Source: Candidatus Eiseniibacteriota bacterium (lineage in GTDB: Bacteria > Orphanbacterota > Orphanbacteria > Orphanbacterales > Orphanbacteraceae). Taken from it: a stretch of 64,000 nt of DNA. Of this stretch, positions 3,043 through 49,845 are shown piece by piece (position 1 is the stretch's first letter; every line of letters starts with the position of its first letter). The position numbers were made by a program, and so were the translations under genes. The notes under the pieces are model-generated. The model was given only the letters and a program-made list of their open reading frames with translations. It did no database searches and was not told where the DNA came from. The stretch lies in the NCBI GenBank assembly GCA_043809585.1, contig JBDROZ010000039.1, positions 12,577 to 76,576 of the forward strand, written 5' to 3'.

Positions 3043-5028
3043 CTACAAGATCTTCCAGAGCAGAACCGCCAGCGCGGCGAGCACCACGAAGGCGTAGCTC
3101 TGGACCTGCCCGGTCTGGGCGAAGCGGAGCACGTAGCTGCCGCCCCGGGTCACGTGACCGACCATATTGACGAGCCCGTCCACGATCCTGACGTCGAAGA
3201 AGCGCCAGAGCAACTTCCTCGAAACGGCGTGAATCGGGAGGATGACCAGCATGTAATAGATTTCGTCGACGTAGAACTTGTCGCGCATCAGTCGGTACGG
3301 GAGGGCGAAGCGCTCCGCGAGGCGGCCCGGCGCCTCCGGCCTCCTGACGTAGAGGAGATAGGCCGCGAGAGTTCCGAGGATCGCGATGCCCGCGGCGATG
3401 CCCATCAGTCCGAGTTCGGCGCCGTGGGCCGCGTGACCGGCCGCCCCGTGGGCCGCCTCGCCGTGCCCGCCGCCGTGGGCGGCGCCCGTGCCCTCGAAGA
3501 CCGGCGCGAGCCACCGCTCGAACCGGTTCGAGCCCCCGAGAACGGGAGGGACGCCGAAGAAGCCGACCGCCGCGGCGCCCGCCGCCAGGATCACGAGGGG
3601 CGCCGTGAACCAGGCGCTCGACTCGCGGGCGTGCCCCGCCTTCTCGCTCCGGGGTTTCCCGGCGAAAGTGAGGAAGAAGAGCCGGAACATGTAGAAGGCG
3701 GTGAGCACGGCGGCGAGGGTGCCGAGCGCCCAGGCGAGCTTCGGCGCGAAGGCCCACGCCTCGTTCCGGCCGCTGAAGGCCTTCCAGAGGATCTCGTCCT
3801 TCGAGAAGAAGCCGGAGAGGGGCGGGTATCCCGCGATGGCGGCGGTGGAGATCAGGAAGGTCCACGCCGTCCAGGGCATCTTCTTGAAGAGGCCGCCCAT
3901 GCTCCGGATGTCCTGCTCGTGATGCATCCCGTGGATCACCGAGCCGGCGCCGAGGAAGAGACAGGCCTTGAAGAAGGCGTGGGTGAAGACGTGGAAGATG
4001 CCGGCGGCGTAGGCGCCCGCCCCCACGCCGATCATCATGTACCCGAGCTGGCTCACGGTGGAGTAGGCGAGCACCTTCTTGATGTCCGTCTGGGCGATGC
4101 CGATGAGCGCCGCGAAGAGGGCCGTCGCCGCGCCGACCACGAGAACCACCGCCGAGGCGAGGGGGGCCAGTTCGTACAGGAACGACATGCGGGCGATCAT
4201 GTAGACCCCCGCCGTCACCATGGTCGCGGCGTGGATGAGGGCGGAGACCGGCGTGGGGCCGGCCATGGCGTCCGGGAGCCAGACGTAGAGAGGGATCTGG
4301 GCCGACTTGCCCGCGGCCCCCAAGAAGAGGAGGAGGCATGCCCCCTCGATCACGCCCGGCGGAAGCTCGTGGACCCGGCGGGCGATCTCGCCGATGTTCA
4401 GTGTCGGATCTCCGTGGCGCCCGAGGGTCGCGGCGAGGAGCAGCATCCCGAGGAGGAAGCCGAAGTCCCCGATCCGGTTCACGATGAACGCCTTCTTCCC
4501 CGCCTTCGCCTTCTCCGTGTCCTCGAACCAGAACCCGATCAGGAGGTACGAGCAGAGGCCCACCCCTTCCCAACCGACGAAAAGCGTGAGAAGCGAATCG
4601 CCGAGGACGAGGGTGAGCATGAAGAAGAGGAAGAGGTTCAGGTAGCCGAAGTATCGGGCGTGGCTCCGGTCCCCGGACATGTAGCCGACCGAGTAGTAGT
4701 GGATCAGGCCGCCGATTCCGGTGACCACGAGGGTCATGGTGAGGGAAAGGGTGTCCGCGAGGAGGCGGAAGTCGATCCGGAGCGATCCCGCCTCGATCCA
4801 GCGGAATACCTCCTGAACCGCCACGCGGTGGTCCGGACCCTCGCCGAGAAAGCGGAAGAAGAGGGACGCCGTCAGGAGGAAGGAGAGGGTCGGACCGGCG
4901 CACGCCACGACGGCCGAGAACCGCCGGGGCACCTCGAATCGAAGACGGGCGCCCGCGGCCGCGGCGAGGCCGTTGATCGCCGCCCCGATCAGGGGCAGAA
5001 CCAGAATCCAGAGCAGGACGCTCTCCAC
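3043..5028 (-). CDS. nuoL: NADH-quinone oxidoreductase subunit L
   Basis: 661-aa ORF MESVLLWILVLPLIGAAING... with the NuoL/ND5 conserved TM core and a long C-terminal extension. Confidence 0.9.
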   Translation of the reverse strand: MESVLLWILVLPLIGAAINGLAAAAGARLRFEVPRRFSAVVACAGPTLSFLLTASLFFRFLGEGPDHRVAVQEVFRWIEAGSLRIDFRLLADTLSLTMTLVVTGIGGLIHYYSVGYMSGDRSHARYFGYLNLFLFFMLTLVLGDSLLTLFVGWEGVGLCSYLLIGFWFEDTEKAKAGKKAFIVNRIGDFGFLLGMLLLAATLGRHGDPTLNIGEIARRVHELPPGVIEGACLLLFLGAAGKSAQIPLYVWLPDAMAGPTPVSALIHAATMVTAGVYMIARMSFLYELAPLASAVVLVVGAATALFAALIGIAQTDIKKVLAYSTVSQLGYMMIGVGAGAYAAGIFHVFTHAFFKACLFLGAGSVIHGMHHEQDIRSMGGLFKKMPWTAWTFLISTAAIAGYPPLSGFFSKDEILWKAFSGRNEAWAFAPKLAWALGTLAAVLTAFYMFRLFFLTFAGKPRSEKAGHARESSAWFTAPLVILAAGAAAVGFFGVPPVLGGSNRFERWLAPVFEGTGAAHGGGHGEAAHGAAGHAAHGAELGLMGIAAGIAILGTLAAYLLYVRRPEAPGRLAERFALPYRLMRDKFYVDEIYYMLVILPIHAVSRKLLWRFFDVRIVDGLVNMVGHVTRGGSYVLRFAQTGQVQSYAFVVLAALAVLLWKIL

Positions 5029-5842: not shown

Positions 5843-6316
5843 CTACTCGCTTAGAAGGTAGTCGATGCCGTAGATCAACTTGTCCCGGGAATCGGACGCC
5901 AGCTCGTACTTGCCCGTGTCCATGCGGATGGCGTCCACGGGACACGCCTCCACGCAGAGACCGCAGAATACGCAACGGAGGATGTTGATGTCAAACCTCG
6001 CGGCGACCTTCTCCTCCGAGTCGGAACGCTCCGTCGCCTCGATGCTGATGCAGTCCGCGGGGCACGCGGTCTGGCAACAGTAGCAGGCGACGCACTTCGG
6101 CGTTCCGTCGTCCCGCCTCATCAGACGGTGCCTCCCCCGGAAGCGCTCCGGCATCGTCCTCTTTTCCTCCGGGTACTGGAGGGTCGGCATCCTGTCCTGA
6201 TGGAAAACGTTCGTCACCAGGTGGCGCATCGAAACGGCCATCCCCCGAAGGATCTCGAGGAGGTACCACCTCTCCCTCGCGTTCATGGGACGTCCGACGG
6301 TTTGAATTCCGGCCAT
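5843..6316 (-). CDS. nuoI: NADH-quinone oxidoreductase subunit I (two 4Fe-4S ferredoxin motifs)
   Basis: This is the C-terminal part of the 584-aa track ORF, starting at ATG 6316 ([10 protein letters not shown]...). It has two CxxCxxCxxxCP motifs ([24 protein letters not shown]). It begins 3 nt after the nuoH stop. Confidence 0.9.
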
Positions 6317-7597: not shown

Positions 7598-9083
7598 GGC
7601 CGGCTCCTTCCGCCGTGAAGGCCGGCACGGCCCGCTCCATCTCCGCCCGGAGCTCCGCGAGAGAACCCCAGGCGAGATCGGCGCCGAGCTTCGCGGCGAT
7701 CCCGCCCAGGATCCGGAAGACCGGCCTCGAATCGCCCGCCTCCTTGATCACCGGCCGGAAGGCCTGGACCCGCCCCTCGAAATTCGTGAAGGTCCCCTCG
7801 CTCTCGGCGTAACTCGCCACCGGGATTCTGATCTCGGCCCCTCCGGCGGTGGCGTCCCGGTTCGTGGCGAGGGCGATCACGGTCTTCCCCTTCAGCAGCT
7901 CCGCGGCGCCCGGGTCGTCCCCGGCGAGGTCGTTTTCGATGACCATCACTGTGTCCGGTCCCCCCTTCAGGGCCGCGACGAGATCTCCGCCGAGGCCGAG
8001 GGCTTCCAACCCCTTCCGGTTCGGACTCCGGTCCGGACGTTTCAGGATGTCGTCCCCCTCCCACGGCGCCCGGAAGGAGCCGCCCACGACCTTCGCCCCC
8101 GGGAGGGCGGCCGCGGCGAAGCGCTTCAGCGCGAAGAGGCTCTCGTTCGACATGCGGGGCGAGGCGACGAGAAGAACGGAGCCCCCCTTTTTCAAAGCCT
8201 CCGCCGCCGCGGCGTCCGCGGCTTCCGGCTTCATCCGGCCCTCCGGTCCCTCGGCGCGGAGAAGGCGGTTTTCGTTGATCCACTTGTAGTCCAGCCGGCC
8301 GGCGTCGCAGATCCAGTAGTCGTTGACCTTCGGGTTCGGGCGCGGCCGGATCCGCTGCACCTCGTTCTGGTACTGATCGATGTAGATGTTGCAGCCCCGC
8401 TCGCAGCCGGGGCAGACCGACTCGGCGGTCTTCAAGAACCAGACCCGCACCTTGAAGCGGAAGTCCTTGCTCGTGAGCGCCCCGACGGGGCAGATGTCGA
8501 CCACGTTGCCCGAGTACTCGTTCTCCAGCCTGCGGCCGGGGAACACGGTGATCTCCGACTTCCCGCCCCGGTTCTTGATCGCGAGCTCCGCCCTCCCGGC
8601 GATCTCGTCGCAGAACCGGACGCACCGGGAACAGAGAATGCACCGTTCGGCGTCGAGGACGACCATGGGCCCGAGGTCCTGCTTCTTCGGCTTGTGGAGC
8701 TTCTCCTCGAGGACGACCCTCGAGTCGTGAAGGCCGTATTCCATGTAGTACTTCTGGAGACCGCACTCCCCCGCCTGGTCGCAGATCGGGCAGTCGATCG
8801 GGTGGTTCCGGAGAATGAACTCCATCACCTCCGTCCGCTCCCGAATCACCTTCTCCGATTCGGTGTTCACCGCCATGCCTTCGTTCACGCGGGTCGTGCA
8901 GGCGGTCTGGAGCTTCGGGATCCCCTCGATCTCGACGCTGCACATGCGGCAGTTCCCCTCCGGCGAAAGGCCGGGGTGCCAGCAGTAATGGGGGATCTTC
9001 ACCCCGTGGAGCGCGGCCGCCTGGATCAGGTTGATCCCGTCCGGGACCTCCACTTCGCGGCCGTTCAGCGTGAACTTCGCCAT
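7587..9083 (-). CDS. nuoG: NADH-quinone oxidoreductase subunit G (short form, 498 aa; N-terminal 2Fe-2S and 4Fe-4S domains present, large C-terminal molybdopterin-like domain reduced)
   Basis: ATG at 9083 gives MAKFTLNGREVEVPDGINLIQAAALHGVKIPHYCWHP… with conserved Cys clusters (CRMC, CPICDQAGEC, CILCSRCVRFC). The upstream part of the 858-aa track ORF is out-of-context GC-rich sequence overlapping nuoF. Confidence 0.85.
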   Translation of the reverse strand: MAKFTLNGREVEVPDGINLIQAAALHGVKIPHYCWHPGLSPEGNCRMCSVEIEGIPKLQTACTTRVNEGMAVNTESEKVIRERTEVMEFILRNHPIDCPICDQAGECGLQKYYMEYGLHDSRVVLEEKLHKPKKQDLGPMVVLDAERCILCSRCVRFCDEIAGRAELAIKNRGGKSEITVFPGRRLENEYSGNVVDICPVGALTSKDFRFKVRVWFLKTAESVCPGCERGCNIYIDQYQNEVQRIRPRPNPKVNDYWICDAGRLDYKWINENRLLRAEGPEGRMKPEAADAAAAEALKKGGSVLLVASPRMSNESLFALKRFAAAALPGAKVVGGSFRAPWEGDDILKRPDRSPNRKGLEALGLGGDLVAALKGGPDTVMVIENDLAGDDPGAAELLKGKTVIALATNRDATAGGAEIRIPVASYAESEGTFTNFEGRVQAFRPVIKEAGDSRPVFRILGGIAAKLGADLAWGSLAELRAEMERAVPAFTAEGAGHEA

Positions 9084-38746: not shown

Positions 38747-39191
38747 GTTTCTCGCCTCGGTAGGGGTTTCCTCGTCCCCATGAGCCTATCGGCCCGGGCC
38801 GAAGTTTTCAAGATCTCCCTCTGTGGGTGCCCAAAGAACCCTGCAATTCACCAAGTAATCACGAGTTGCCGGGTTGCCCTCCTCGGGCCTGATTCACTGG
38901 TCTTCATTGTGGTGCGAAGGGGGGGGCTCGGAAACGCCTTCTCGATTCCGGCAGGTTCGTGTCTCGACGTGGGGCGCGAACTCGGTTCGCCTTCCGGCGG
39001 CCGGAGCGCACCGCCGGCCCCTGGGGTGAGAAGCGGTCCATGTGAGCTCCCGGGGATTCACATGCCGGGAAGGTCAACAAGGAGTCGGAACGGCAAAGTT
39101 CGCGTTTCTATGCGGAAGGCGAACTGGGATGTTTGTGGTGGACGGACCGGTTTCGGGAAGGATGTCGCTTTCGCCTGGTTTCGTGACGTAG

Positions 39192-39209
39192 ATGTCCCAA
39201 TAGGGACAT
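39192..39209. promoter_or_regulatory. Perfect palindrome ATGTCCCAATAGGGACAT (candidate operator/REP-like site)
   Basis: 7-4-7 inverted repeat, followed by TCGAG. It shares the 12-mer GGGACATTCGAG with the site at 40161-40176. Confidence 0.35.
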
Positions 39210-39261
39210 TCGAGGCGGACGGGGACGCCCTCCGGCCCCCAAAGACCGGGCTATTGTCTGA

Positions 39262-39291
39262 GATGTCACTTCCTTCCAGAAGTGGGACATC
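39262..39291. promoter_or_regulatory. Imperfect palindrome GATGTCACTTCC…GAAGTGGGACATC sharing the GTGGGACAT core
   Basis: Second copy of the motif, about 190 nt upstream of the lipoprotein ORF. Confidence 0.3.
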
Positions 39292-39454
39292 AGGGCCACG
39301 GAGAGGGGCACTGGTGGGCGCCATTACGTTGCGGGCCTTCGCGCAATTTCCGATAAGGACCGTTATCGGTATCAACGGTGGATCGGCTCTGTTAATCTGT
39401 TGGTGGATTATCCTTCCCCGTCCTCCCTTGGGCGGGTCATGCCGGAGGTGAGAA

Positions 39455-40000
39455 ATGAGATGTCAATTGATCGGTTCTGTGGCGGCTTCCCTCGCTGCTA
39501 TGTACTGCTTTGGTCTGGGTTGTGCACAAACCCAAGTTACACCAGCGGCGGTCAAAACTAATTACATCTATCCTCCGCCGGCCCCGAGGGAGGGGGAATG
39601 GCCCATATGGCGGGATGTACCTGTCGAGACAGAGGATTACGATCGTATTTGGAGAACAGTCATCGACGTGGTATCTGAGCGTTTCCCAATAGCTGTTTTG
39701 GATCGAGAGGGTGGCTATATAAGGACCGAATGGAGACCTGACCGCGACCTTATTGGAGATTATGCAAAAGAATACCTCATGCTGTCGGACCAGCGGAAGC
39801 TAGATAAGTACCCATGTGAAAGGTGCGAAACGCGCTTCGTTATCAGGTGCTACCCTGCCGAGAAACGCCTCAGAATGGGGTTGGAAGTCAAGAAAGGCAA
39901 CACGGACAAGCTCTCTCCCGAGCTCTCTCCGGAGAAGATCGCTATCGCCTGGCAAGGAATCCCCCAGGAAATACAGAACCGGCTGCGCGTAACGGAGTAA
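39455..40000 (+). CDS. Hypothetical secreted/lipoprotein-like protein (181 aa) in a lower-GC patch
   Basis: GGAGGTG RBS 4-5 nt before the ATG. Signal peptide MRCQLIGSVAASLAAMYCFGLGCAQTQ. No recognisable domain. Local composition is clearly less GC-rich than the flanks. Confidence 0.65.
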   Translation: MRCQLIGSVAASLAAMYCFGLGCAQTQVTPAAVKTNYIYPPPAPREGEWPIWRDVPVETEDYDRIWRTVIDVVSERFPIAVLDREGGYIRTEWRPDRDLIGDYAKEYLMLSDQRKLDKYPCERCETRFVIRCYPAEKRLRMGLEVKKGNTDKLSPELSPEKIAIAWQGIPQEIQNRLRVTE

Positions 40001-40146
40001 TCTAAGAAAGGATTGAGAATCGGCCGACCATTCGCGCCGCTCCTCGATATGCTTCTGCCTTTACAAACTCGCAGCCCTTAACCTTCTGATAACGCGATTT
40101 ATTCGTAACTTCCCGGGGGGCGTGCCATTTCTGCGGATCCTGATAC

Positions 40147-40170
40147 GTCACACTTTTCGTAAAGTGGGAC
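40147..40170. promoter_or_regulatory. Near-perfect palindrome GTCACACTTT-TCGT-AAAGTGGGAC (third GTGGGACAT-family site)
   Basis: 10-4-10 inverted repeat with one mismatch, about 150 nt downstream of the lipoprotein ORF, inside a 377-nt convergent intergenic gap. Confidence 0.35.
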
Positions 40171-40377
40171 ATTCGAGCAGCAGAAACCCGTGCGGGCGAC
40201 ATTCGCCGAACAGACACTCCTCGATAAAGGGCCACTCCCGGCAGGACCTCCCTCCTCTCCCCTTGATTGTGCATCATAAAGGACGTTATGAGGCACAATG
40301 ATGGTTTCAGCCTCCGGTCCATGCCGGCATCACTCCGGCGGTCGGCTGCATCTCGGAGCGATTCTTCCTCCAAGGCT

Positions 40378-41392: not shown

Positions 41393-42001
41393 ATGATTCT
41401 GGAACCGGACAAGATGACCCCGAAGGACCTCTATTTTCTGATGGTCGGGTCGATCGTCCCCCGGCCGATCGCCTTCGTGTCGACGATCAGCGCCGGCGGG
41501 GCCCCGAACCTCGCCCCCATGAGCTTCTTCAACGGCGTCTCCGCCTCTCCGCCGGTGGTGAGCGTCTCGGTCACCCGGCGGCGGGGCGCGAAGAAGGACA
41601 CGGTCCGGAACGCGCTGGAGACGGCCGAGTTCGTGGTGAACGTGGTGGACGAGTCGATCGCGGTCGCGATGAACCGGACGAGCGGCGACTACCCGCCGGA
41701 GGTGAACGAGTTCGAGGTGAGCGGCCTGACGGCGATCCCCTCGGACCTGGTCGCCCCCCCCCGGGTCGCGGAGTCGCCGATCCACTTCGAGTGCCGCCTC
41801 CTCCGGGCCGTCGACGTCGGCGAGGAACCGTCGGTCACCACCCTCCTCCTCGGCCAGGTGGTCCGTTTCCATGTGCGGGACGGCTACCTGAAAGAGGACG
41901 GCCACATCGATCCGGACAAGTTCCACGCCGTCGGCAAGATGGGCGGCCCGCTCTACTGCCGGACCCGAGACCGCTTCGCGATGGAGAGGCCGAAGGTGTG
42001 A
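41393..42001 (+). CDS. Flavin reductase-like FMN-binding (split-barrel) protein
   Basis: Internal ATG 41393 gives MILEPDKMTPKDLYFLMVGSIVPRPIAFVSTIS…NLAPMSFFNGVS…. The upstream 67 codons of the track ORF are noise. Confidence 0.8.
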   Translation: MILEPDKMTPKDLYFLMVGSIVPRPIAFVSTISAGGAPNLAPMSFFNGVSASPPVVSVSVTRRRGAKKDTVRNALETAEFVVNVVDESIAVAMNRTSGDYPPEVNEFEVSGLTAIPSDLVAPPRVAESPIHFECRLLRAVDVGEEPSVTTLLLGQVVRFHVRDGYLKEDGHIDPDKFHAVGKMGGPLYCRTRDRFAMERPKV

Positions 42002-42081
42002 AGAGAGATGGGGGATATTGGATGTGGAATGCGGGTTCCTTTCGGTACCAGATTCTCCCGGAGCAGAGCGGAGGGGTATCT

Positions 42082-42112
42082 GGTTCCGAAAGGACATGGT
42101 TCCGAAAGGACA
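42082..42112 (+). repeat. Direct repeat GGTTCCGAAAGGACA x2 (1-nt spacer)
   Basis: Read directly: 42082-42096 and 42098-42112 are identical 15-mers. Confidence 0.8.
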
Positions 42113-42156
42113 GGTGTGCGGGAAATAGGGTCTCTGGTTAGGAAATCCTACGTGCG

Positions 42157-42500
42157 GCGGGGGGCGGACCGGCATCGGGAGGGACCGGGGCATAGACGGG
42201 GAGCCGTTAATGGTATCCGCAACGCAATGTCCGCGAGCCCGGAGAATGGGAGGGTTTCCTTCCGCAGCACGACGAGCGTCCCAGCCTGCCCCGATCCCTC
42301 CCTCTTCCGGTCCGCCTCCCCGCCGATTTCATGGGATCGCCATCCCCCGGAGCCTGCCCGCGCAGTATCGAATTGTCATCCCCGCGTAGGCGGGGACCCA
42401 GGAAATCCAATTCCGTAGCTCCCCCCCCCCCGTTCGCCCTGAGTGCCGCGGCCGAAGGCCACGGTGTATCGAAGGGTCGGACCGGCGAGAGACATGTGAG
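42157..42500 (-). repeat. Composite structured repeat, inverted copy (order on the plus strand: B', C', A')
   Basis: 42157-42324 is the reverse complement of the about 170-bp B element (TIR GGGGCGGACCGG…CCGGTCCGCC). 42325-42425 is the reverse complement of C (…GGAATTGGATTTCCTGGGTCC CCGCCTACGCGGGG ATGACAATTC…). 42426-42500 is the reverse complement of A (…CCGTGGCCTTCGGCCGCGG CACTCAGGGCGAACGGGGG). Confidence 0.8.
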
Positions 42501-42578
42501 TGTTCATGGCGGTAGTTGGTATTTTGTCTCTGAACTCCCCTAAATTCCCTTGGTCACTTACGGCAGGGAAGCGGCCCA

Positions 42579-44195
42579 TTAGGAGGGCACGGTATCATCG
42601 GGAAACACGATCTTGGCCTGTACTCCTATTTGCCCCAATAGGTAAAGAAGCCCCCCACCATCGATAAGCTCGATAGGCTTTTCGTTGGCAAACTCATGAG
42701 CATCTGGCCCATACCCACTAGTCGAAACCAGTATGCCCTTATTGGCTCCTTCATTAATCATCGTTCCATAGAGGTCTCGAACGGCCGCAACGCCCACCGT
42801 ATTCTTGTACCGCTTGGCCTGAATAACGACCTTCCCACCTACAATGGGCCGCGTATCGAAGGCAATAGCATCGACACCCCCGTCTCGGGATGACTGTGTT
42901 TGTTTGGTGTCGAATCCGAGATGGTCGAACAGATTGCTTATGAGGTTCTCGAATTCAAACGGATCTAATTCATAGAGATTGGGTCGACTCTCGAGGTCGG
43001 CGAGGACATCGCTTGCTTCCACGAAGCGTCGATCAACCATGTTGAAGTCGACTATGGGCTTAACGGCCTGCAGTTGGTCCGCACTCCGAGAAACTTGAGC
43101 ACCCAGATTCCTCAGACAAACCGCCTTGTCGACCCTCGAGAGGTTAACCTCAGAGAAGCGCTCCTTAGTTGTTCTGACAGAAACGAGATGCGGACGGATA
43201 TCGTTCCCCGTGGCCGGATCTACCGCCTGAACAAATCCATTGAAGACTACGACGTCGATATGGTTTCCTTGGTCTGCCTCCAGAACCTCATGGATAGACC
43301 GAAGGCTGACTGCGGCCACGACATCTTGATAGAGAGATCTTAAGTCGCTCTGCTTCGCATCCTTCTCTCGTATCTCATCCTTGCTCTTTACGTAGAAGTA
43401 CTCACTGACGGTCGGCACAACCGAAACATTGGGGAGCTCATACTCAATTACAAGCTCCTTCGATTCTGGGATGTACGCCAATCGGTATTCTTGGGGAAAC
43501 TCCTCGGGGTATTCTGATCGCTCCAGGACCATAGAGGAGTAGGTTACTATCGCCTCAGAATCACCATTGCCGTACGCAACTTGAAACTCGTCTATCTCCT
43601 GATTCCGCTGTCGGACCTTCTCCTGGAATTGCTCTTTCTCCTTCACATATTCGGCTCGCACTTGCCGTATTCTCTCTTCTCGAGCATCGAGCGCTTGCTG
43701 ATACTCTTTAAGTGCCTCTGAGTATTGAGCATCGGCTTCTCGAAGTCGAGACTCGTACTTCGCTCTGGAACCTGGGAGAATCTTTGCTAGACGGTTAGGC
43801 TTTGGTATCTGGCTAAGAAAGGACTCTCGGTCCGGCGGTGTCGGTTCCTCGCTTAGATCCTTCGGAATCTTGAATGACCGAAAGCGCTCTTTCACTCGAA
43901 GGTCACCAAATGAGACTGTATCATCAATCTGAAGTGTGTGTTTCAGAATCTGGGACAACGCCTCGGTTCTAGTGGCAAGGTGCTCGTTCCTCTCGTTGGC
44001 TTCCTCCAAACGACTCTCGGCGTAGAGTTTCTTGGCTTCGCGTACAGCCTGCCCCTGAGCGCGGATCATTGCCTTCTCAAGGAGGTGCAATTCTCTCTGG
44101 CGAGCTTTCTCTCTACGTTCGGCTTCACGAGCGGACCGCGCGGCTTCGCGGGCCATGGCGTTTACTAGGCCGCTGAAAGAACCTCTTCTACCCAT
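42579..44195 (-). CDS. Mrr-type restriction-endonuclease-domain protein with a long N-terminal coiled-coil region (538 aa)
   Basis: The C-terminal about 150 aa (…ELDPFEFENLISNLFDHLGFDTKQTQSSRDGGVDAIAFDTRPIVGGKVVIQAKRYKNTVGVAAVRDLYGTM…) match the Mrr_cat nuclease fold. The N-terminal about 200 aa are charged and heptad-rich. AAGGGGA RBS. Composition is clearly less GC-rich than the chromosome average. Confidence 0.8.
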   Translation of the reverse strand: MGRRGSFSGLVNAMAREAARSAREAERREKARQRELHLLEKAMIRAQGQAVREAKKLYAESRLEEANERNEHLATRTEALSQILKHTLQIDDTVSFGDLRVKERFRSFKIPKDLSEEPTPPDRESFLSQIPKPNRLAKILPGSRAKYESRLREADAQYSEALKEYQQALDAREERIRQVRAEYVKEKEQFQEKVRQRNQEIDEFQVAYGNGDSEAIVTYSSMVLERSEYPEEFPQEYRLAYIPESKELVIEYELPNVSVVPTVSEYFYVKSKDEIREKDAKQSDLRSLYQDVVAAVSLRSIHEVLEADQGNHIDVVVFNGFVQAVDPATGNDIRPHLVSVRTTKERFSEVNLSRVDKAVCLRNLGAQVSRSADQLQAVKPIVDFNMVDRRFVEASDVLADLESRPNLYELDPFEFENLISNLFDHLGFDTKQTQSSRDGGVDAIAFDTRPIVGGKVVIQAKRYKNTVGVAAVRDLYGTMINEGANKGILVSTSGYGPDAHEFANEKPIELIDGGGLLYLLGQIGVQAKIVFPDDTVPS

Positions 44196-44441
44196 AGAAT
44201 CCCCTTGACGAAATCCGATTTGGTACTTTTCTATCTACAGACTGGGTAACAATTGGGGAACACAATGCCAGTCTACTCTCACAACCAATGATCGTGTGTG
44301 CACAGTTACTGCTACAGAACGGATATTGCGCTCCCCGATCATCGGCGCGAGAAGTGCTCGTTCGCCTCCGGCTATCTGCTAACTACTTGGGATTCTAGGT
44401 GTTCGATGGGTCGTGGGTCAATCATTCTCTGTTTCCCGACC

Positions 44442-44738
44442 CCGGTTCATTCCCTTCGACAGGCCCCCGGTTCATCCCCTTCGATACGGACCTCCGGTCC
44501 TACTCAGGACAGGCTTCGATACACCGCGGCCCTTGGCCGCGGCACTCAGGACGAACGGGGGAAGATCGGCGGGGAGGCGGACCGGAGGAGGGAGGGGAGT
44601 GGGGCGGACTTGAACGCTCGTCGTGCGGCGGGAGAAAGCCCTCCCATTCTCCGGGCTCGTACGGGTAGCGTTGCGCGGACCGCCAACAACTCCCCGGTTA
44701 TGCCCCGGCCCCTCCCGATGCCGGTCCGCCCCCCGCCG
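44442..44738 (+). repeat. Composite structured repeat, direct copy 1 (A + B)
   Basis: A (44442-44560): CTTCGATAC GGACCTCCGGTCC TACTCAGGAC AGG CTTCGATAC ACCGCGGCCCTTGGCCGCGG CACTCAGGAC GAACGGGGG. B (44571-44738) starts GGGGAGGCGGACCGGAGG and ends CCGGTCCGCCCCCCGCCG. Confidence 0.8.
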
Positions 44739-44780
44739 CACGCAGCAGATTGCGACTGTCCTCGGCCACCTTCTCCCCTG

Positions 44781-45029
44781 TTCATCCCCTTCGATACGGA
44801 CCTTCGGTCCTACTCAGGACAGGCTTCGATACGATCCTCCCTCCGGTCGGATCACTCAGGACGAACGGTGACGGGGGCCACGGGAAATGTACATGATACC
44901 TTCGGTTTCGCCGCCCCCTTCGACAGGATCAGGACGGGCTTCGATTCACCGCGCATTGCCGCCCCCGTCGACAGGCTCAGGACAGGCTTCGATACGGCGC
45001 CGGGGGCGCCTACTCAGGACGAACGGGGA
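44781..45029 (+). repeat. Two further A-type units (hairpin plus YACTCAGGAC…CTTCGATAC modules) between copy 1 and mazF
   Basis: 44781-44877 and 44914-45029 repeat the CTTCGATAC / GC-hairpin / ACTCAGGACGAACGG pattern with different hairpin sequences (for example GGCGCCGGGGGCGCC). Confidence 0.7.
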
Positions 45030-45038
45030 ATGGCATCC

Positions 45039-45380
45039 CTACGCCGCGAACATCTCCCGGAGAACGGCCAGCGACAAAGCCGTCGCCTTCGGCGACAGAC
45101 GACCGAGGCGGCGGACGAGGCGATCCCGGTCCACCGTGCGGATCTGATCGAGCACCACATGGCCGGAGCACCCCCCGAACCGGCAGGGCACTCGAAAGGG
45201 ATAACCGTGAGATCCGGTCGTGAGCGGTGCCACGATGACCGTGCGGAGATGCCCGTTCAACTCGTCCGGTGAAACGACGACGCAGGGCCGGGTCTTCCGG
45301 ATCTCCTCGCCCCGGGCGGGATCGAGGGCGATCAGGTAAACCTCACCCCGCCGAATCCCGCTCTCCTTCACCATTCCCAC
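45039..45380 (-). CDS. mazF: Type II toxin, MazF/PemK family endoribonuclease
   Basis: 113 aa. …RGEVYLIALDPARGEEIRKTRPCVVVSPDELN…VIVAPLTT… is the PemK signature. Confidence 0.85.
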   Translation of the reverse strand: MGMVKESGIRRGEVYLIALDPARGEEIRKTRPCVVVSPDELNGHLRTVIVAPLTTGSHGYPFRVPCRFGGCSGHVVLDQIRTVDRDRLVRRLGRLSPKATALSLAVLREMFAA

Positions 45381-45616
45381 TCCTCCTCGTCGAACCGGGT
45401 CGGAGCCGGAGGAATCACCAGGAGGTCCTCCCCTCTCTCCCGCAGGGCCTCAGCCCCCTCCGCCCAGCCGGCGCGGATTCCTGCGGCCGAAGCGATGACG
45501 ATCGCTCCGCCCTGAACACGGATCTCGACTTCCTCCGAGAGTCCGGCCTCCTCGATCAGCGGCTTCGGAATCCGCACGCCCCGTGAATTCCCGATGCGAA
45601 CCAAGCGTGTCTTCAT
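45368..45616 (-). CDS. mazE: Type II antitoxin, MazE/AbrB (SpoVT-AbrB) family
   Basis: 82 aa. MKTRLVRIGNSRGVRIPKPLIEEAGL… is a swapped-hairpin signature. Acidic tail. Overlaps mazF by 13 nt. GGAGGGG RBS. Confidence 0.8.
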   Translation of the reverse strand: MKTRLVRIGNSRGVRIPKPLIEEAGLSEEVEIRVQGGAIVIASAAGIRAGWAEGAEALRERGEDLLVIPPAPTRFDEEEWEW

Positions 45617-45629
45617 GAGACCGCCCCTC

Positions 45630-45650
45630 CTATGTAATTACATAGTAATT
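45630..45650. promoter_or_regulatory. Palindromic operator-like site CTATGTAATTACATAG (+ATTACATAGTAAT) immediately upstream of mazE
   Basis: Perfect 16-bp palindrome 14 nt upstream of the mazE ATG. The only AT-rich patch in this intergenic region. Confidence 0.5.
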
Positions 45651-45836
45651 CCGTGTGCGGCACCTGTCAAGCAACGATCTCTGAAGACTGAAGACCGGCT
45701 GCCTCCCCTCCGATAGCACTCCGGAGTGAGCGGGGGACCGACCCTCCATGCGGAGAAGACGAAGCCCACGTTCCGCGAAAACGGGCGGCGTCCCATGGAC
45801 GATCCGGGGATCCGACTGTAAACTGTCTGTCGGGAG

Positions 45837-46406
45837 GTGCCTAGCATGCGGTTGATTCTCAAGATCGCGCTCTTGGCCGTGGCGACCCTCGCAATTCAAT
45901 GTACTTCCGGAAGCGGCCCTACAGATTGGGTCCCTGATTTTGACCAGGCGAAGTGGGATGATCTGGAGGAAGCTGCCAAGACGGTACGGTTGGGCGACAC
46001 CTTCAAACTGCGAGTGGGCCGGACGGCCTACATTTCGGGAGCGTACCTGTGGGTCGTCTTCGCGGATGTCCCATCAGACGGTCGTTGCCCGATCGATGGA
46101 TCGTTCACGTGCTTTTGGGAGGGTGTCGCCTTCGTCGACCTATGGGTGCGCCAGGACATCCCGAACAGAGCCCCGGGAGAACCCGTAGAGCTCGTGGTCC
46201 ACACCACGGACACCGGCCCGTACTCGAAACACGTGGACCACGAGGCATACACGCTGACCCTGGGCGGGCTCGTGCCGTACCCGACGTACAAGGAGGACGG
46301 CATCAATCCTCAGTATCCTGGCCTGTTCCAGGTTCCACAGCTCGGCGAGTACATCGTGACGCTGACGGTAACAAGGGCCGCCCCCGGGTCCCCCGCCGCG
46401 GACTAA
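45837..46406 (+). CDS. Hypothetical secreted/lipoprotein-like protein (189 aa)
   Basis: GGGAGG RBS. Signal peptide MPSMRLILKIALLAVATLAIQCTSG. No recognised domain. Lower GC than the flanks. Confidence 0.6.
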   Translation: MPSMRLILKIALLAVATLAIQCTSGSGPTDWVPDFDQAKWDDLEEAAKTVRLGDTFKLRVGRTAYISGAYLWVVFADVPSDGRCPIDGSFTCFWEGVAFVDLWVRQDIPNRAPGEPVELVVHTTDTGPYSKHVDHEAYTLTLGGLVPYPTYKEDGINPQYPGLFQVPQLGEYIVTLTVTRAAPGSPAAD

Positions 46407-46506
46407 TCCAGCGTGAAAGCGGCGGCAGGTCGTTGCTCCGCCCGAAATCGCAGTTTCGTCCCCCTGATCCGACTGCCATCCCCACGCCTCTGCTCCCCCC
46501 GCCTCG

Positions 46507-46906
46507 CCCCCTTCGATACGGACCTCCGGTCCTACTCAGCACAGGCTTCGACAAGGCGCCGAGGGCGCCTACTCAGGACGAACGGGGAGGGGAACTACGG
46601 AATTAGATTTCCTGGATCCTCGCCTACGCGAGGATGACAATTGGACAGTGCGCGGGGCAAGCACCGCGGGGATGACAAGGGAAGCAAGGCCGTGTCGTCC
46701 CCGGGGGACCTTTGCCGCCAGGGCTAAGGGGACACGGCGGGGAGGCGGACCGGAGGAGGGAGGGGAGTGGGGCGGACTTGAACGCTCGTCGTGCGGCGGG
46801 AGAAAGCCCTCCCATTCTCCGGACTCGCGGAGGTGGCGTTGCGGAAGGCATCAAGAACTCCCCGGTTATGCCCCACCCCCTCCCGATGCCGGTCCGCCCC
46901 CCGCCG
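46507..46906 (+). repeat. Composite structured repeat, direct copy 2 (A + C + B)
   Basis: A 46507-46590. C 46591-46737 (GGAATTAGATTTCCTGGATCC TCGCCTACGCGAGG ATGACAATTGG … GCGGGG ATGACAAGGG …CCAGGGCTAAGGGGACACGGC). B 46738-46906, near-identical to 44571-44738. Confidence 0.8.
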
Positions 46907-46936
46907 TACGCAGAAGATGGTGACTGTCCCTGGTTG

Positions 46937-47258
46937 CCCTTCGATACGGACCTCCGGTCCTACTCAGGACGAACGGGGAGGGAGCATCACGGAATTGGAT
47001 TTCCTGGATCCCCTGCGCGGGGATGACAAGGGAAACAGGGCCGTGTTGTCCTCGGGGGACCTTTCGCGCCAGGGCTAAGGGGACACGGCGGGGAGGCGGA
47101 CCGGAGGAGGGAGGGGAGTGGGGCGGACTTGAACGCTCGTCGTGCTGCGGAAGGAAGCCCTCCCATTCTCCGGGCTCGCAGAGGTAGCGTTGCGGAAGGC
47201 ATCAAGAACTCCCCGGTTATGCCCCGCCCCCTCCCGATGCCGGTCCGCCTCCCCGCCG
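46937..47258 (+). repeat. Composite structured repeat, direct copy 3 (short A + C + B), in tandem with copy 2
   Basis: A 46937-46978 (internal module deleted between the two CTCAGGAC repeats). C 46979-47089. B 47090-47258. Confidence 0.8.
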
Positions 47259-47402
47259 TGCAGAACAAACAAGTGGCTGTCCCTGGATGCTCACTCGACC
47301 GTCATTTCATCACTGTGAACGAAAGGCGCGGCTCATTCGAAACGGACCCGGTAATCCGCTGCGCGACTGCCGAGCACTGCAGCGGACAGCCGCAGTCAGG
47401 CC

Positions 47403-47454
47403 CTGCCCGTCCTACCTGCCCGTCCTACCTGCCCGTCCTACCTGCCCGTCCTAC
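47403..47454. repeat. Perfect tandem repeat CTGCCCGTCCTAC x4 (13-bp unit)
   Basis: Read directly. Four exact units ending 10 nt from the stop codon of the xdh-family large-subunit gene. Confidence 0.9.
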
Positions 47455-47463
47455 CCCATCCCC

Positions 47464-49845
47464 CTACATCTTCCCCACCGCGCGAAGCACCCGCTCCGGT
47501 GTGAACGGGAGTTCCCGGAGGCGGACGCCGAGCGCGTGCTTCAATGCGTTGCCGACGGCCGGGGCGGGACCGTTCACCGGGATCTCGGCGATCGCCTTCA
47601 CCCCGAAGGGGCCGGTCGGCTCGTACGTTTCGACGAAGATCGTCTTCATCTTCGGCATGCCCTTCGACTTCAGGATCTTGTAGTCGATGAAGCCGACGTT
47701 CGCCGGGCGCCCCTCGCCGTCGAACATCAGTTCCTCCACCAGCGCCGCGCCGAGCCCCATCGAGACCGCGCCGTGCACCTGCCCCTCCGCGAGCTTCGGC
47801 GAGAGGATCGTCCCCGCGTCGACCGCCGTCACGAACTCCACCACCCGGATCTCCCCCGTCTCCATGTCCACCTCGATATCCGCGAACTGCGCCGCGAAAG
47901 GGGGCGGGCTGACCGGCGACACGTGCGACGCCGTCTTCTCCACCTGCGTCTTCTTCTTGTAGGCGATGAACATCGCCACCTCCCGGAGGGGCGTCTCCCC
48001 CCCCGAGGCCGCCGACATCACCTTGCGATCCTCCAGACGTAGATCGGCCGCCTTCTCGCCGATCATCTCCGCCGCGGCGTCCAGGATCGAATCGCGGACT
48101 TCCTCCGCCGCCCGGAGCGCGGCGCCGCCCGAGACATACGTCGTGCTCGACGCGTACGCCCCCGAGTCGAAGGGGGTCAGGTCCGTGTCCGCCGCGTAGA
48201 CCGTCACATCCTCCACGCCGATCCCGAGGGTCTCCGCGACGATCTGGGCGATCACCGTGTCCCCCCCCGTACCGAGGTCCGCCGCGCCGATCATCAGCGT
48301 CACCGAACCATCTTCGTTCAACTTCACCGTCGCCCCCGCCGTGTCGATACCCGCCACACCGCTCCCCTGGGAGAGACAGCACATGCCGACCCCCTTCTTG
48401 ATGAGCGGATTCCGGGCGTTCTCCTCGGCATAACGCTTCCGCTTCTCCCGCCAGCCGATCGCCTCCGCCCCCTTCTCGATGCACTCCCGGAGGCCGCAGC
48501 TCTCGATCTTCCACGCCGACCGCTCGTCCTCCGGCACGTTCGACGCCTTCACTTCATAGATGTGGGGGGAGAGCTCGTCTGCGTCCCCCTCGCGCACCGT
48601 GGTGGCCAGCCGAAAATCGACAGGGTCCATGCCGAGCCTCTCCGCCACCTCGTCCATGTGGCACTCGAGGGCGAACGCCCCCTGAGGCGTTCCGTATCCC
48701 CGCATGGCGCCCGCCGGCGGCAGGTTCGTGTAAACGGCGTCGAACTTGTAGCGCATGTTCGGGCAGCGGTAGCGGGGGAGATTCTTGTTCCCCGTGTTCG
48801 TCGGCACCGTGGGACTGTGGGAGCCGTACGCCCCCGCGTCGACGAGAGCGACCATCTCCATGGCCGTCAGCGTGCCGTCCTTCTTTACGCCCACCTTCAC
48901 GTCGATGGACATGGAGTGCCGGCACCGGACCGCGTTCAGGTCCTCGAACCGGGAAAGTTCCAAACGAACGGGCCGCCCCGAGGCGAGGGTGAGGGCCGCG
49001 GCGACATCCTCGAGGACCATCTCCTGCTTGCCCCCGAAACCGCCGCCGATCCGCGGCTTGATCACCCGGATCCGCCCGACCGGAAGGCCGAGGGCCTGCC
49101 CGATCTGGCGGCGCGTGTGGAACGGAACTTGGGTCGTGCAGATGACGGTCAGCCGCCCGTCGTCGTCCAGATAACAGACCGCCCCGTGCAGCTCCATCTG
49201 GGCGTGCTGCACCCGGGGGGAGAAGTAGGTCCCCTCGACCACCAGGTCCGCCTCGGCGAAGCCTCTCGCCGGATCCCGGAGCGTGCAGTCGACGGCGGCG
49301 CAGCGGTTCCGCGCCGGGTCCTCGGCCCGCACGATGTCCGGCTCGTCGTGAACCACCGGCGCCCCTTCCCGGAGCCCCTCCTCGGGCGTGAGCACCGCGG
49401 GAAGAACCTCGTAGTCGACCCGGATTCGGCGGAGCGCCTCGGCGGCGACCTCCTCCGACTCGGCCGCCACCGCCGCGACCCGGTCCCCCACGTGCCGGAC
49501 CTTGGCATCGAAGAGGAAATAGTCGTACGGGGAAGGCTCGACGTAATCCTGGCCCGCCCGCGTATAGGCGACCCGGGGGAACCGGCCGGGATCGTTCTCG
49601 CTCCACGGCCGGTCGCCGCGCACGTTCTCGTGGGTGAGCAGGGCGTGAACGCCGGGGAGGGCCGCCGCCGCGGAGACGTCGATCGAGCGAATCCGCGCGT
49701 GGGCGTGGGGGCTGCCGAGGATCTTCGCGACGAGCATCCCCTTTTGCGGGAAATCGTCCGTGAAAGCGGGGGCGCCGGTCACCAGTTCCCGGCCGTCCAC
49801 CTTCCGGACGTCCCGTCCGATCACGTGGTAGTACTTCCGGCTCAC
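47464..49845 (-). CDS. Xanthine dehydrogenase/aldehyde oxidase-family molybdopterin-binding large subunit
   Basis: 793 aa. Aldehyde oxidase/XDH a/b hammerhead and MoCo-binding domains (…GGGFGGKQE…, …QVHGAVSMGLGAAL…). Confidence 0.9.
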   Translation of the reverse strand: MSRKYYHVIGRDVRKVDGRELVTGAPAFTDDFPQKGMLVAKILGSPHAHARIRSIDVSAAAALPGVHALLTHENVRGDRPWSENDPGRFPRVAYTRAGQDYVEPSPYDYFLFDAKVRHVGDRVAAVAAESEEVAAEALRRIRVDYEVLPAVLTPEEGLREGAPVVHDEPDIVRAEDPARNRCAAVDCTLRDPARGFAEADLVVEGTYFSPRVQHAQMELHGAVCYLDDDGRLTVICTTQVPFHTRRQIGQALGLPVGRIRVIKPRIGGGFGGKQEMVLEDVAAALTLASGRPVRLELSRFEDLNAVRCRHSMSIDVKVGVKKDGTLTAMEMVALVDAGAYGSHSPTVPTNTGNKNLPRYRCPNMRYKFDAVYTNLPPAGAMRGYGTPQGAFALECHMDEVAERLGMDPVDFRLATTVREGDADELSPHIYEVKASNVPEDERSAWKIESCGLRECIEKGAEAIGWREKRKRYAEENARNPLIKKGVGMCCLSQGSGVAGIDTAGATVKLNEDGSVTLMIGAADLGTGGDTVIAQIVAETLGIGVEDVTVYAADTDLTPFDSGAYASSTTYVSGGAALRAAEEVRDSILDAAAEMIGEKAADLRLEDRKVMSAASGGETPLREVAMFIAYKKKTQVEKTASHVSPVSPPPFAAQFADIEVDMETGEIRVVEFVTAVDAGTILSPKLAEGQVHGAVSMGLGAALVEELMFDGEGRPANVGFIDYKILKSKGMPKMKTIFVETYEPTGPFGVKAIAEIPVNGPAPAVGNALKHALGVRLRELPFTPERVLRAVGKM

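Follow-up and report, generated by a model that had tools for sequence, protein, structure and literature searches.

A four-copy intergenic repeat with long inverted ends in a small defence-gene islet of an uncultured Eisenbacteria genome

The stretch of DNA analysed here (64 kb, hereafter the window, to which all coordinates refer unless another contig is named) contains a segment of 5.46 kb (5,462 bp, 42002-47463) that is absent from related genomes. The rest of the window codes for housekeeping proteins (nuo, dnaE, pantothenate, and NAD genes). Two convergent core genes enclose the segment. A flavin reductase gene (41393-42001, forward strand) lies on the left, and the gene for the molybdopterin-binding (large) subunit of a xanthine-dehydrogenase-family enzyme (XDH; 47464-49845, reverse strand) lies on the right, both with their 3' ends facing it. 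Relatives whose XDH is 77-78% identical have 10 or 273 bp between these two genes, without anything similar to the repeat described below. As the flanking genes are adjacent in these relatives, the 5.46-kb segment is an insertion. It is a recently inserted small defence-gene islet of an uncultured Eisenbacteria genome, and its genes were acquired horizontally.

The cargo of the islet includes a full-length gene for a type IV methyl-directed restriction enzyme (Mrr_cat; 42579-44195, reverse strand), identified by PADLOC as mREase_IV (2e-93), with a G+C content of about 50% compared to about 70% for the genome. A mazEF pair (mazF, 45039-45380; mazE, 45368-45616; both on the reverse strand) and an open reading frame of 186 aa (45846-46406, forward strand) complete it. 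The latter matches no family, and its N-terminus, judged by eye, is like that of a signal peptide or lipoprotein. Among 15 billion proteins, exact-sequence queries recovered the flavin reductase and three islet proteins, each a singleton at 90% identity; the MazF sequence used as query gave no match. No second contig was found to encode the very proteins of the islet genes or P0001. The four accessions (MFH1277705, 706, 708, and 709) fit an unbroken run in which mazF is 707, which suggests that the NCBI annotation places no protein gene in the repeats. In the closest relative (90% identical XDH; Logan SRR16297628, L124 9531-9564), 33 nt follow the stop codon of XDH before the contig ends. This is the point at which the islet starts in the window, which suggests a repeat-induced assembly break.

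Shorter repeats are also present near the borders of the islet. A perfect 13-nt tandem repeat (CCTGCCCGTCCTA, 4.2 units, 47402-47455) lies beside the XDH stop codon, and a perfect 16-nt direct repeat (TGGTTCCGAAAGGACA, two units, 42081-42112) is located between the flavin reductase stop codon and the first copy of the element described below. Elsewhere in the window, a second stretch of lower G+C content (52-60%, 38780-40300) between an aminotransferase and a DUF72 gene holds two open reading frames (223 and 181 aa) without significant family match. At this place, the gap in one relative (L131) measures 613 bp and holds no called gene. The stretch may be another small insertion.

Exactly four copies of an element of about 175 nt (171-185 nt), here called B, are found in the window, in both orientations and all intergenic. 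A profile built from the four copies (nhmmer) recovered them at 42148-42329 (-), 44564-44745 (+), 46731-46913 (+), and 47082-47264 (+), and nothing else in the window. The original prediction had placed all four correctly, each about 7 nt too short per side. Copy c1 (42148-42332, reverse strand; hairpin proper 42155-42325) is the most divergent one and has a 1-nt deletion in its 5' arm. Copy c2 (44563-44746, forward strand; hairpin proper 44567-44738), on which that prediction was centred, has units of a second repeat, C, directly upstream and no module A, a third repeat. Copy c3 (46730-46914; hairpin proper 46735-46906) and copy c4 (47082-47266; hairpin proper 47086-47258) are also on the forward strand, and c4 carries a 1-nt insertion. 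A weakly conserved tail, (C/T)ACGCAG.AGAT.G.GACTGTCC(C)TGG, follows the 3' end at 44739-44770, 46907-46937, and 47259-47290 (all forward) and is partially present at c1 (42125-42154, reverse). The terminal pattern GGCGGACCGG-N120-150-CCGGTCCGCC matched four times in the window, compared to 0.01 matches expected from shuffles. There is no fifth copy or relic in the 64 kb according to nhmmer, and a sensitive self-BLAST of 41.9-47.5 kb found none beyond 42148-47290.

Over 173 aligned columns, the copies share 83-95% pairwise identity. The claim that all are more than 90% identical holds for c2, c3, and c4 (c2 compared to c3 or c4, 91%; c3 compared to c4, 95%), but not for c1, which is 83-86% identical to the others. 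Copies c3 and c4 lie within a tandem duplication of about 352 bp, which carries C, A, B, and the 30-nt tail together. Since they share these duplicated flanks, c3 and c4 are not independent insertions, and at least one copy arose by tandem duplication and not by transposition.

The ends of B are long, G+C-rich inverted repeats. Instead of the 14 bp first reported, the terminal inverted repeat (CGGCGGGGAGGCGGACCGG / CCGGTCCGCC(T)CCCCGCCG) comprises 18 bp and one bulged A, and in c4 it is a perfect 19 bp. Past a 4x4 internal loop, GGGAGGGG/CCCCTCCC (8 bp) and then GGGGC/GCCCC (5 bp) follow, so that the pairing of the ends extends to about 31 bp. An internal hairpin, GGGAG-AAAGCC-CTCCC, had been described as conserved. 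It is present in c2 and c3 only, and c1 and c4 read GGAAGGAA(A/G)CCCTCCC. The predicted fold of the whole element is rod-shaped, with an energy of about -100 to -111 kcal/mol (z = -4.3 compared to dinucleotide shuffles). The central 101 nt alone are no more stable than shuffles (z +0.15 to +1.8) and have a different minimum-energy fold in each copy; the stability of B therefore comes from its inverted ends. In all four copies, the sense strand is 4-7 kcal/mol more stable than the antisense strand, owing to G-U pairs in 19 of 235 paired cells (about 8%).

Conservation follows the same division. The 31-nt arms are 94-100% identical, whereas the 111-nt core is 76-94% identical. Of the arm columns, 4 of 62 are variable, and of the core columns, 33 of 111 (Fisher p = 2e-4). 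This difference indicates that what is constrained or homogenised is the sequence of the two ends and not an RNA architecture in the interior. The 18 pairs of the terminal helix are the same in all copies. Covariation is restricted to two compensatory pairs, a number reached by 56 of 500 column shuffles in an alignment of only four related sequences. Identity of sequence in the stems, instead of covariation, suggests that they are recognised or propagated as DNA. Moreover, B is not coding: c1 and c4 carry 1-nt indels, and substitutions show no codon-position bias (15/11/10). A small protein gene was rejected.

Some further features of the arms can be mentioned. By eye, the arms (CGGCGGGGAGGCGGACCGGAGGAGGGAGGGGAG) contain no internal palindrome beyond CGGaCCG. 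The 5' arm GGGGAGGCGGACCGGAGGAGGGAGGGGAGTGGGGCGG (44571-44606, with its counterparts in the other copies) has four runs of at least three G and could form a G-quadruplex competing with the hairpin. Repeated Shine-Dalgarno-like GGAGG motifs are found in it as well.

B is accompanied by two other modules in a recurring order, C(n)-[A]-B-tail, in which C-units precede four of four B copies and module A three of four. Module A begins with GGAATTRGATTTCCTGG, followed by the hairpin ATCCTCGC-CTAC-GCGAGGAT, then GACAA and further sequence. It occurs upstream of c3 (46590-46734, forward), of c4 (46980-47085, forward), and of c1 (42333-42425, reverse). These copies are themselves mosaic, as that of c1 lacks the last ~60 nt and that of c4 an internal ~40 nt. 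The hairpin TCCCCGC-CTAC-GCGGGGA with the following TGACAA lies at 42380-42405 (reverse), 46612-46640, and 47003-47029, and the c3 copy shows a compensatory C>T/G>A change. C-units have the form CCCC-TTCGATAC-[variable hairpin]-(T)ACTCAGGAC, followed by AGG and the next unit or by GAACGGGG. One array is located at 44438-44562 (forward), and further arrays are found at 42426-42480 (reverse), 44775-44868, 44905-45029, 46497-46589, and 46936-46979. The hairpin sequence differs from unit to unit, and the flanks are conserved. It is the C-units, and not B, that directly adjoin the cargo. Two of them (42427-42474 and 44514-44561) are inverted and 92% complementary, with the restriction gene exactly between them. 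This gene looks like an insertion that split a REPIN-like C doublet within its spacer.

The companion modules are also found outside the window. The flanks of C-units, with a different hairpin, occur in 12 IMG/VR contigs (sites were noted, for instance, in L135 at 6170-6300 and in L030 at 4193-4230). The 24-mer CTTCGACARGCTCAGSRCGAACGG, which is C without its hairpin, was matched in 107 IMG/VR contigs, where it frequently forms inverted doublets of 100-160 nt, and the C motif was also found in a Sphingobium genome. No Rfam family matched the C motif. The A hairpin was matched weakly (nhmmer E = 0.007-0.9) in a few IMG/VR contigs carrying C, and near-identical hairpins with the CTAC loop were seen by eye in two such contigs (L136, ~8810-8850; L135, 10575-10606). 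As judged from these matches, the C motif is a repeat common to several phyla, and C and A appear to be REP/REPIN-style repeats of very wide distribution. With C in more than 100 IMG/VR contigs and the A hairpin weakly in a few, the mosaic is built from palindromic repeats of a known style.

Several observations were made alongside these searches. Four C-carrying IMG/VR contigs (L135-L138; L135 723-12943) encode a terminase, a portal protein, a protease-capsid protein, a gp6-like connector, and DUF2460, a gene set that we take to be an alphaproteobacterial GTA/HK97-type head-tail cluster; the repeats are located in the gap after the capsid gene. The 15-mer GGCTCAGGACGAACG of the C-units (44976-44990 and others) is presumably identical to the 16S rRNA just downstream of primer 27F in many bacteria. 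The B core GGACTTGAACGCTCGTCGTGC loosely resembles the continuation of that rRNA sequence, maybe by coincidence. Many IMG/VR loci also have foldback elements of another kind within 600 nt of C-type motifs, as seen without a background control (for instance L156 3857-4145, L158 6678-6861, L168 2101-2267, L186 3227-3397, L195 3377-3558, and L222 3276-3482). They measure 90-290 nt and have long inverted ends, but their sequences are unrelated. These elements may be analogues of B.

Searches for B itself gave no relatives. It was not found in 2.1 Mb of other loci, including ~100 kb of related Eisenbacteria and ~1 Mb chosen for C-type repeats. The exact invariant 21-mer CCCTCCCGATGCCGGTCCGCC had four chance matches in coding or unrelated DNA among JGI metagenome contigs, none of them B. 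Neither IMG/VR, queried with three blocks of B, nor plasmids and phages (blastn) gave a match. In reference genomes, the terminal pattern, which is too loose for this use, had 119 chance matches in high-G+C genomes, all of them unrelated to B. To detect spurious open reading frames annotated over such repeats, B was translated in six frames and compared to 5.8 billion predicted proteins, with no match at E <= 10, and C-A, treated likewise, had none either. This search is informative for near-identical B only and too insensitive for modules of 25-40 nt. Rfam 15 contained no match for B at gathering thresholds and only noise at E <= 1 (islet) and E <= 10 (one copy). No tRNA or tmRNA was found, and nothing relevant was found in the literature on the motif sequences and Eisenbacteria repeats. 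On these grounds, B appears to be a new sequence family without detectable relatives. The original prediction of a mobile element or RNA family would have led one to expect additional copies elsewhere or a secondary structure conserved across copies, and as far as the searched data go, neither was found.

The surroundings of the copies were searched for traces of known mechanisms as well. No consistent target-site duplication (2-10 bp) was found at any choice of boundary (offsets -12 to +12 on the 5' side and -12 to +45 on the 3' side), although such duplications had been suggested as a check. A pair of integron R'' (RYYYAAC) and R' (GTTRRRY) boxes is not present in the islet, where single boxes occur within coding sequence only, and an integron attC was rejected for B on this basis. 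Neither a sigma-70-like promoter nor an intrinsic terminator with a U-tract lies beside any B copy. Among the scanned open reading frames of the 64-kb window, there is no transposase, integrase, tyrosine recombinase, RAYT, or reverse transcriptase. An IS110 bridge RNA or a retron RNA was rejected, with no recombinase or reverse transcriptase nearby. Tn3-type ends were rejected for B, and so were hammerhead or other known ribozymes, for B and for C-units.

The B copies have a regular position relative to the genes. Each cargo block is bracketed by two of them: c1 and c2 for the restriction gene, c2 and c3 for mazEF and the 186-aa open reading frame, and c3 and c4 for an "empty" interval. As c1 is inverted relative to the other three copies, inverted B copies bracket the restriction gene (c1/c2), already flanked by the inverted C-unit pair, and the whole islet (c1/c4). 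Furthermore, a B hairpin follows 150-430 nt beyond each gene 3' end of the region. This hairpin is c1 for the flavin reductase and restriction genes, c2 for mazF, and c3/c4 for the 186-aa open reading frame and the XDH gene.

Several explanations were weighed against these data. The MITE-like reading of the original prediction is supported in part, as B is small and non-coding, has long inverted termini with much higher conservation than its interior, and is found in both orientations at intergenic locations only. A true MITE, i.e., a deletion derivative of an insertion sequence whose 19-bp ends are recognised by a transposase encoded elsewhere and which moves by cut-and-paste or copy-and-paste, is nevertheless unlikely. 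Target-site duplications are missing over the whole range of boundaries from -12 to +45 nt, the copies are confined to 5.1 kb of the window and missing from its other 59 kb, and no transposase is encoded in it. The c3/c4 pair arose by tandem duplication including the flanks, and B is always part of the C-(A)-B-tail order, which is not expected of independent insertions. The second reading in that prediction, a family of structured small RNA genes, fared worse. Such an RNA would be transcribed from the strand with the G-rich arm and act together with the defence and toxin genes. It would agree with the better folding of the sense strand by 4-7 kcal/mol in each copy, with the two compensatory pairs, and with a module A that could carry a promoter before three of the four copies. 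However, no Rfam family was hit even at E <= 10, and the covariation is no higher than in the controls, as 56 of 500 shuffles reach it. The core lacks stability and takes a different fold from copy to copy, the internal hairpin named in the prediction is missing from two of the copies, and the copies have no sigma-70-like promoter or intrinsic terminator beside them, with c2 even lacking module A. An RNA gene is thus considered very unlikely.

Selection could also have kept B as a bidirectional terminator or insulator between inserted and convergent core genes, in which case it would not be selfish. The location of a hairpin past every gene 3' end and its high stability on both strands are in line with this role. 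The element has no U-tract, though; in relatives, 10 bp between these convergent genes are enough, two tandem copies would be redundant, and 175 nt with a variable core is more than a terminator needs. This explanation is quite unlikely, if somewhat less so than an RNA gene. Cassette arrays typically carry toxin-antitoxin and defence genes, and the islet has both kinds. B hairpins might be recombination sites that delimit cassettes in an array resembling an integron or a CALIN, with no integrase close by, and every block of foreign genes would have been captured at B. The bracketing of each cargo block and the host-like G+C content of the repeats next to a restriction gene of 50% G+C would fit. 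As in attC/CALIN arrays, imperfect palindromes separate promoter-poor foreign genes including a toxin-antitoxin pair, and the repeats are more alike than the cargo. Against it, there are no R''/R' boxes in or near B, A, or C, nor R/L boxes, no integrase or other tyrosine recombinase is encoded in the 64 kb, c1 is inverted so that orientations are mixed, and B is longer than a typical attC. In addition, the cargo blocks keep their own upstream non-coding regions in mixed orientation, and C-units and not B adjoin them directly. This makes the cassette reading highly improbable. Even less probability is given to a more unusual version, in which the ~175-nt hairpin-forming site, perhaps with A and C, would belong to an undescribed cassette-capture or inversion system of Eisenbacteria, with folded single-stranded DNA recognised by a recombinase encoded elsewhere and defence genes stacked at the site, or in which B would be a new structured RNA of defence islets.

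We favour, with a probability of about one half, the explanation that B is a lineage-specific, non-coding, REPIN/MITE-like foldback repeat and one module of a BIME-like mosaic (C-units, A, and B) in the defence islet, multiplied by local duplication and recombination. The copies look like an ordinary selfish or structural palindromic repeat and not like a proven transposon or RNA gene. B consists of two inverted ends of ~40 nt, of which ~31 bp can pair, around a poorly constrained spacer of ~100 nt, and the C/A/B mosaic fills the non-coding DNA of the 5.46-kb islet between the convergent core genes. According to this explanation, the copies would multiply through an activity acting in trans on the conserved ends or through unequal or illegitimate recombination between neighbouring repeats. 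Resident copies could then provide homology for the gain, loss, or inversion of foreign cassettes. Some points speak against the favoured explanation. No B copy was found outside the islet in any data searched, so that mobility and a genome-wide population are unproven. The identity of the arms may equally reflect recent duplication and gene conversion instead of selection. Finally, the arms lack the short REP palindrome, and no RAYT, insertion-sequence transposase, or integrase is encoded in the 64 kb.

A hairpin of about -100 kcal/mol, transcribed in either direction, might act as a barrier or stabiliser at transcript ends, as REP and BIME sequences do. Judging by its position, B is plausible as a transcript-end hairpin. 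With moderate confidence, B can be said to give the neighbouring transcripts a strong 3' hairpin incidentally.

The BIMEs of E. coli and the RIMEs of rhizobia are intergenic combinations of several small palindromic modules, which vary in order and orientation and are often located between convergent genes. The mosaic of palindromic modules between convergent genes in the islet resembles them, but its sequences are unrelated, and it is tied to a horizontally acquired islet and not to core operons. To our knowledge, REPINs have no target-site duplication, a feature that B shares. REPINs, which are REP doublets forming hairpins (Bertels and Rainey 2011), have conserved inverted ends, a less conserved spacer, a long hairpin, and an extragenic location, and ordered tandem clusters including flanking sequence were described for them (PMC3116915). 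B shares the conserved inverted ends, the variable spacer, the predicted hairpin, the extragenic location, and a tandem cluster with flanks. It differs by its size (~175 nt compared to 71-110 nt), by ends without the short REP palindrome, and by the lack of a RAYT gene in the window, where the C-units rather than B look like classical REP/REPIN material. The anatomy of B may be said to fit that of a REPIN; membership is not established. Bacterial MITEs such as ERIC, Correia/NEMIS, RUP, and MITEAba12 are non-coding elements of 100-400 bp with terminal inverted repeats and foldable RNA, located at gene ends (PMC10969869, PMC2229807). B is similar in size, terminal inverted repeats, lack of coding capacity, foldability, and location at gene ends. 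In contrast to MITEs, it has no target-site duplication, its copies always share the same modular context, and the 64-kb window shows neither dispersal nor a parent insertion sequence.

B is a real element, correctly spotted, and ordinary in kind, with modest interest unless recombination occurs at it. If the favoured explanation is true, B would be a routine addition to the palindromic repeats of bacteria, from a phylum known only through metagenomes. Its practical value would lie mainly in annotation, as such repeats break assemblies, make long spurious open reading frames, and mark a small hotspot of defence-gene insertion. If, moreover, the B copies are the junctions at which cargo is exchanged, they would offer a simple, integrase-independent model of how defence islets grow at the junctions of convergent genes.
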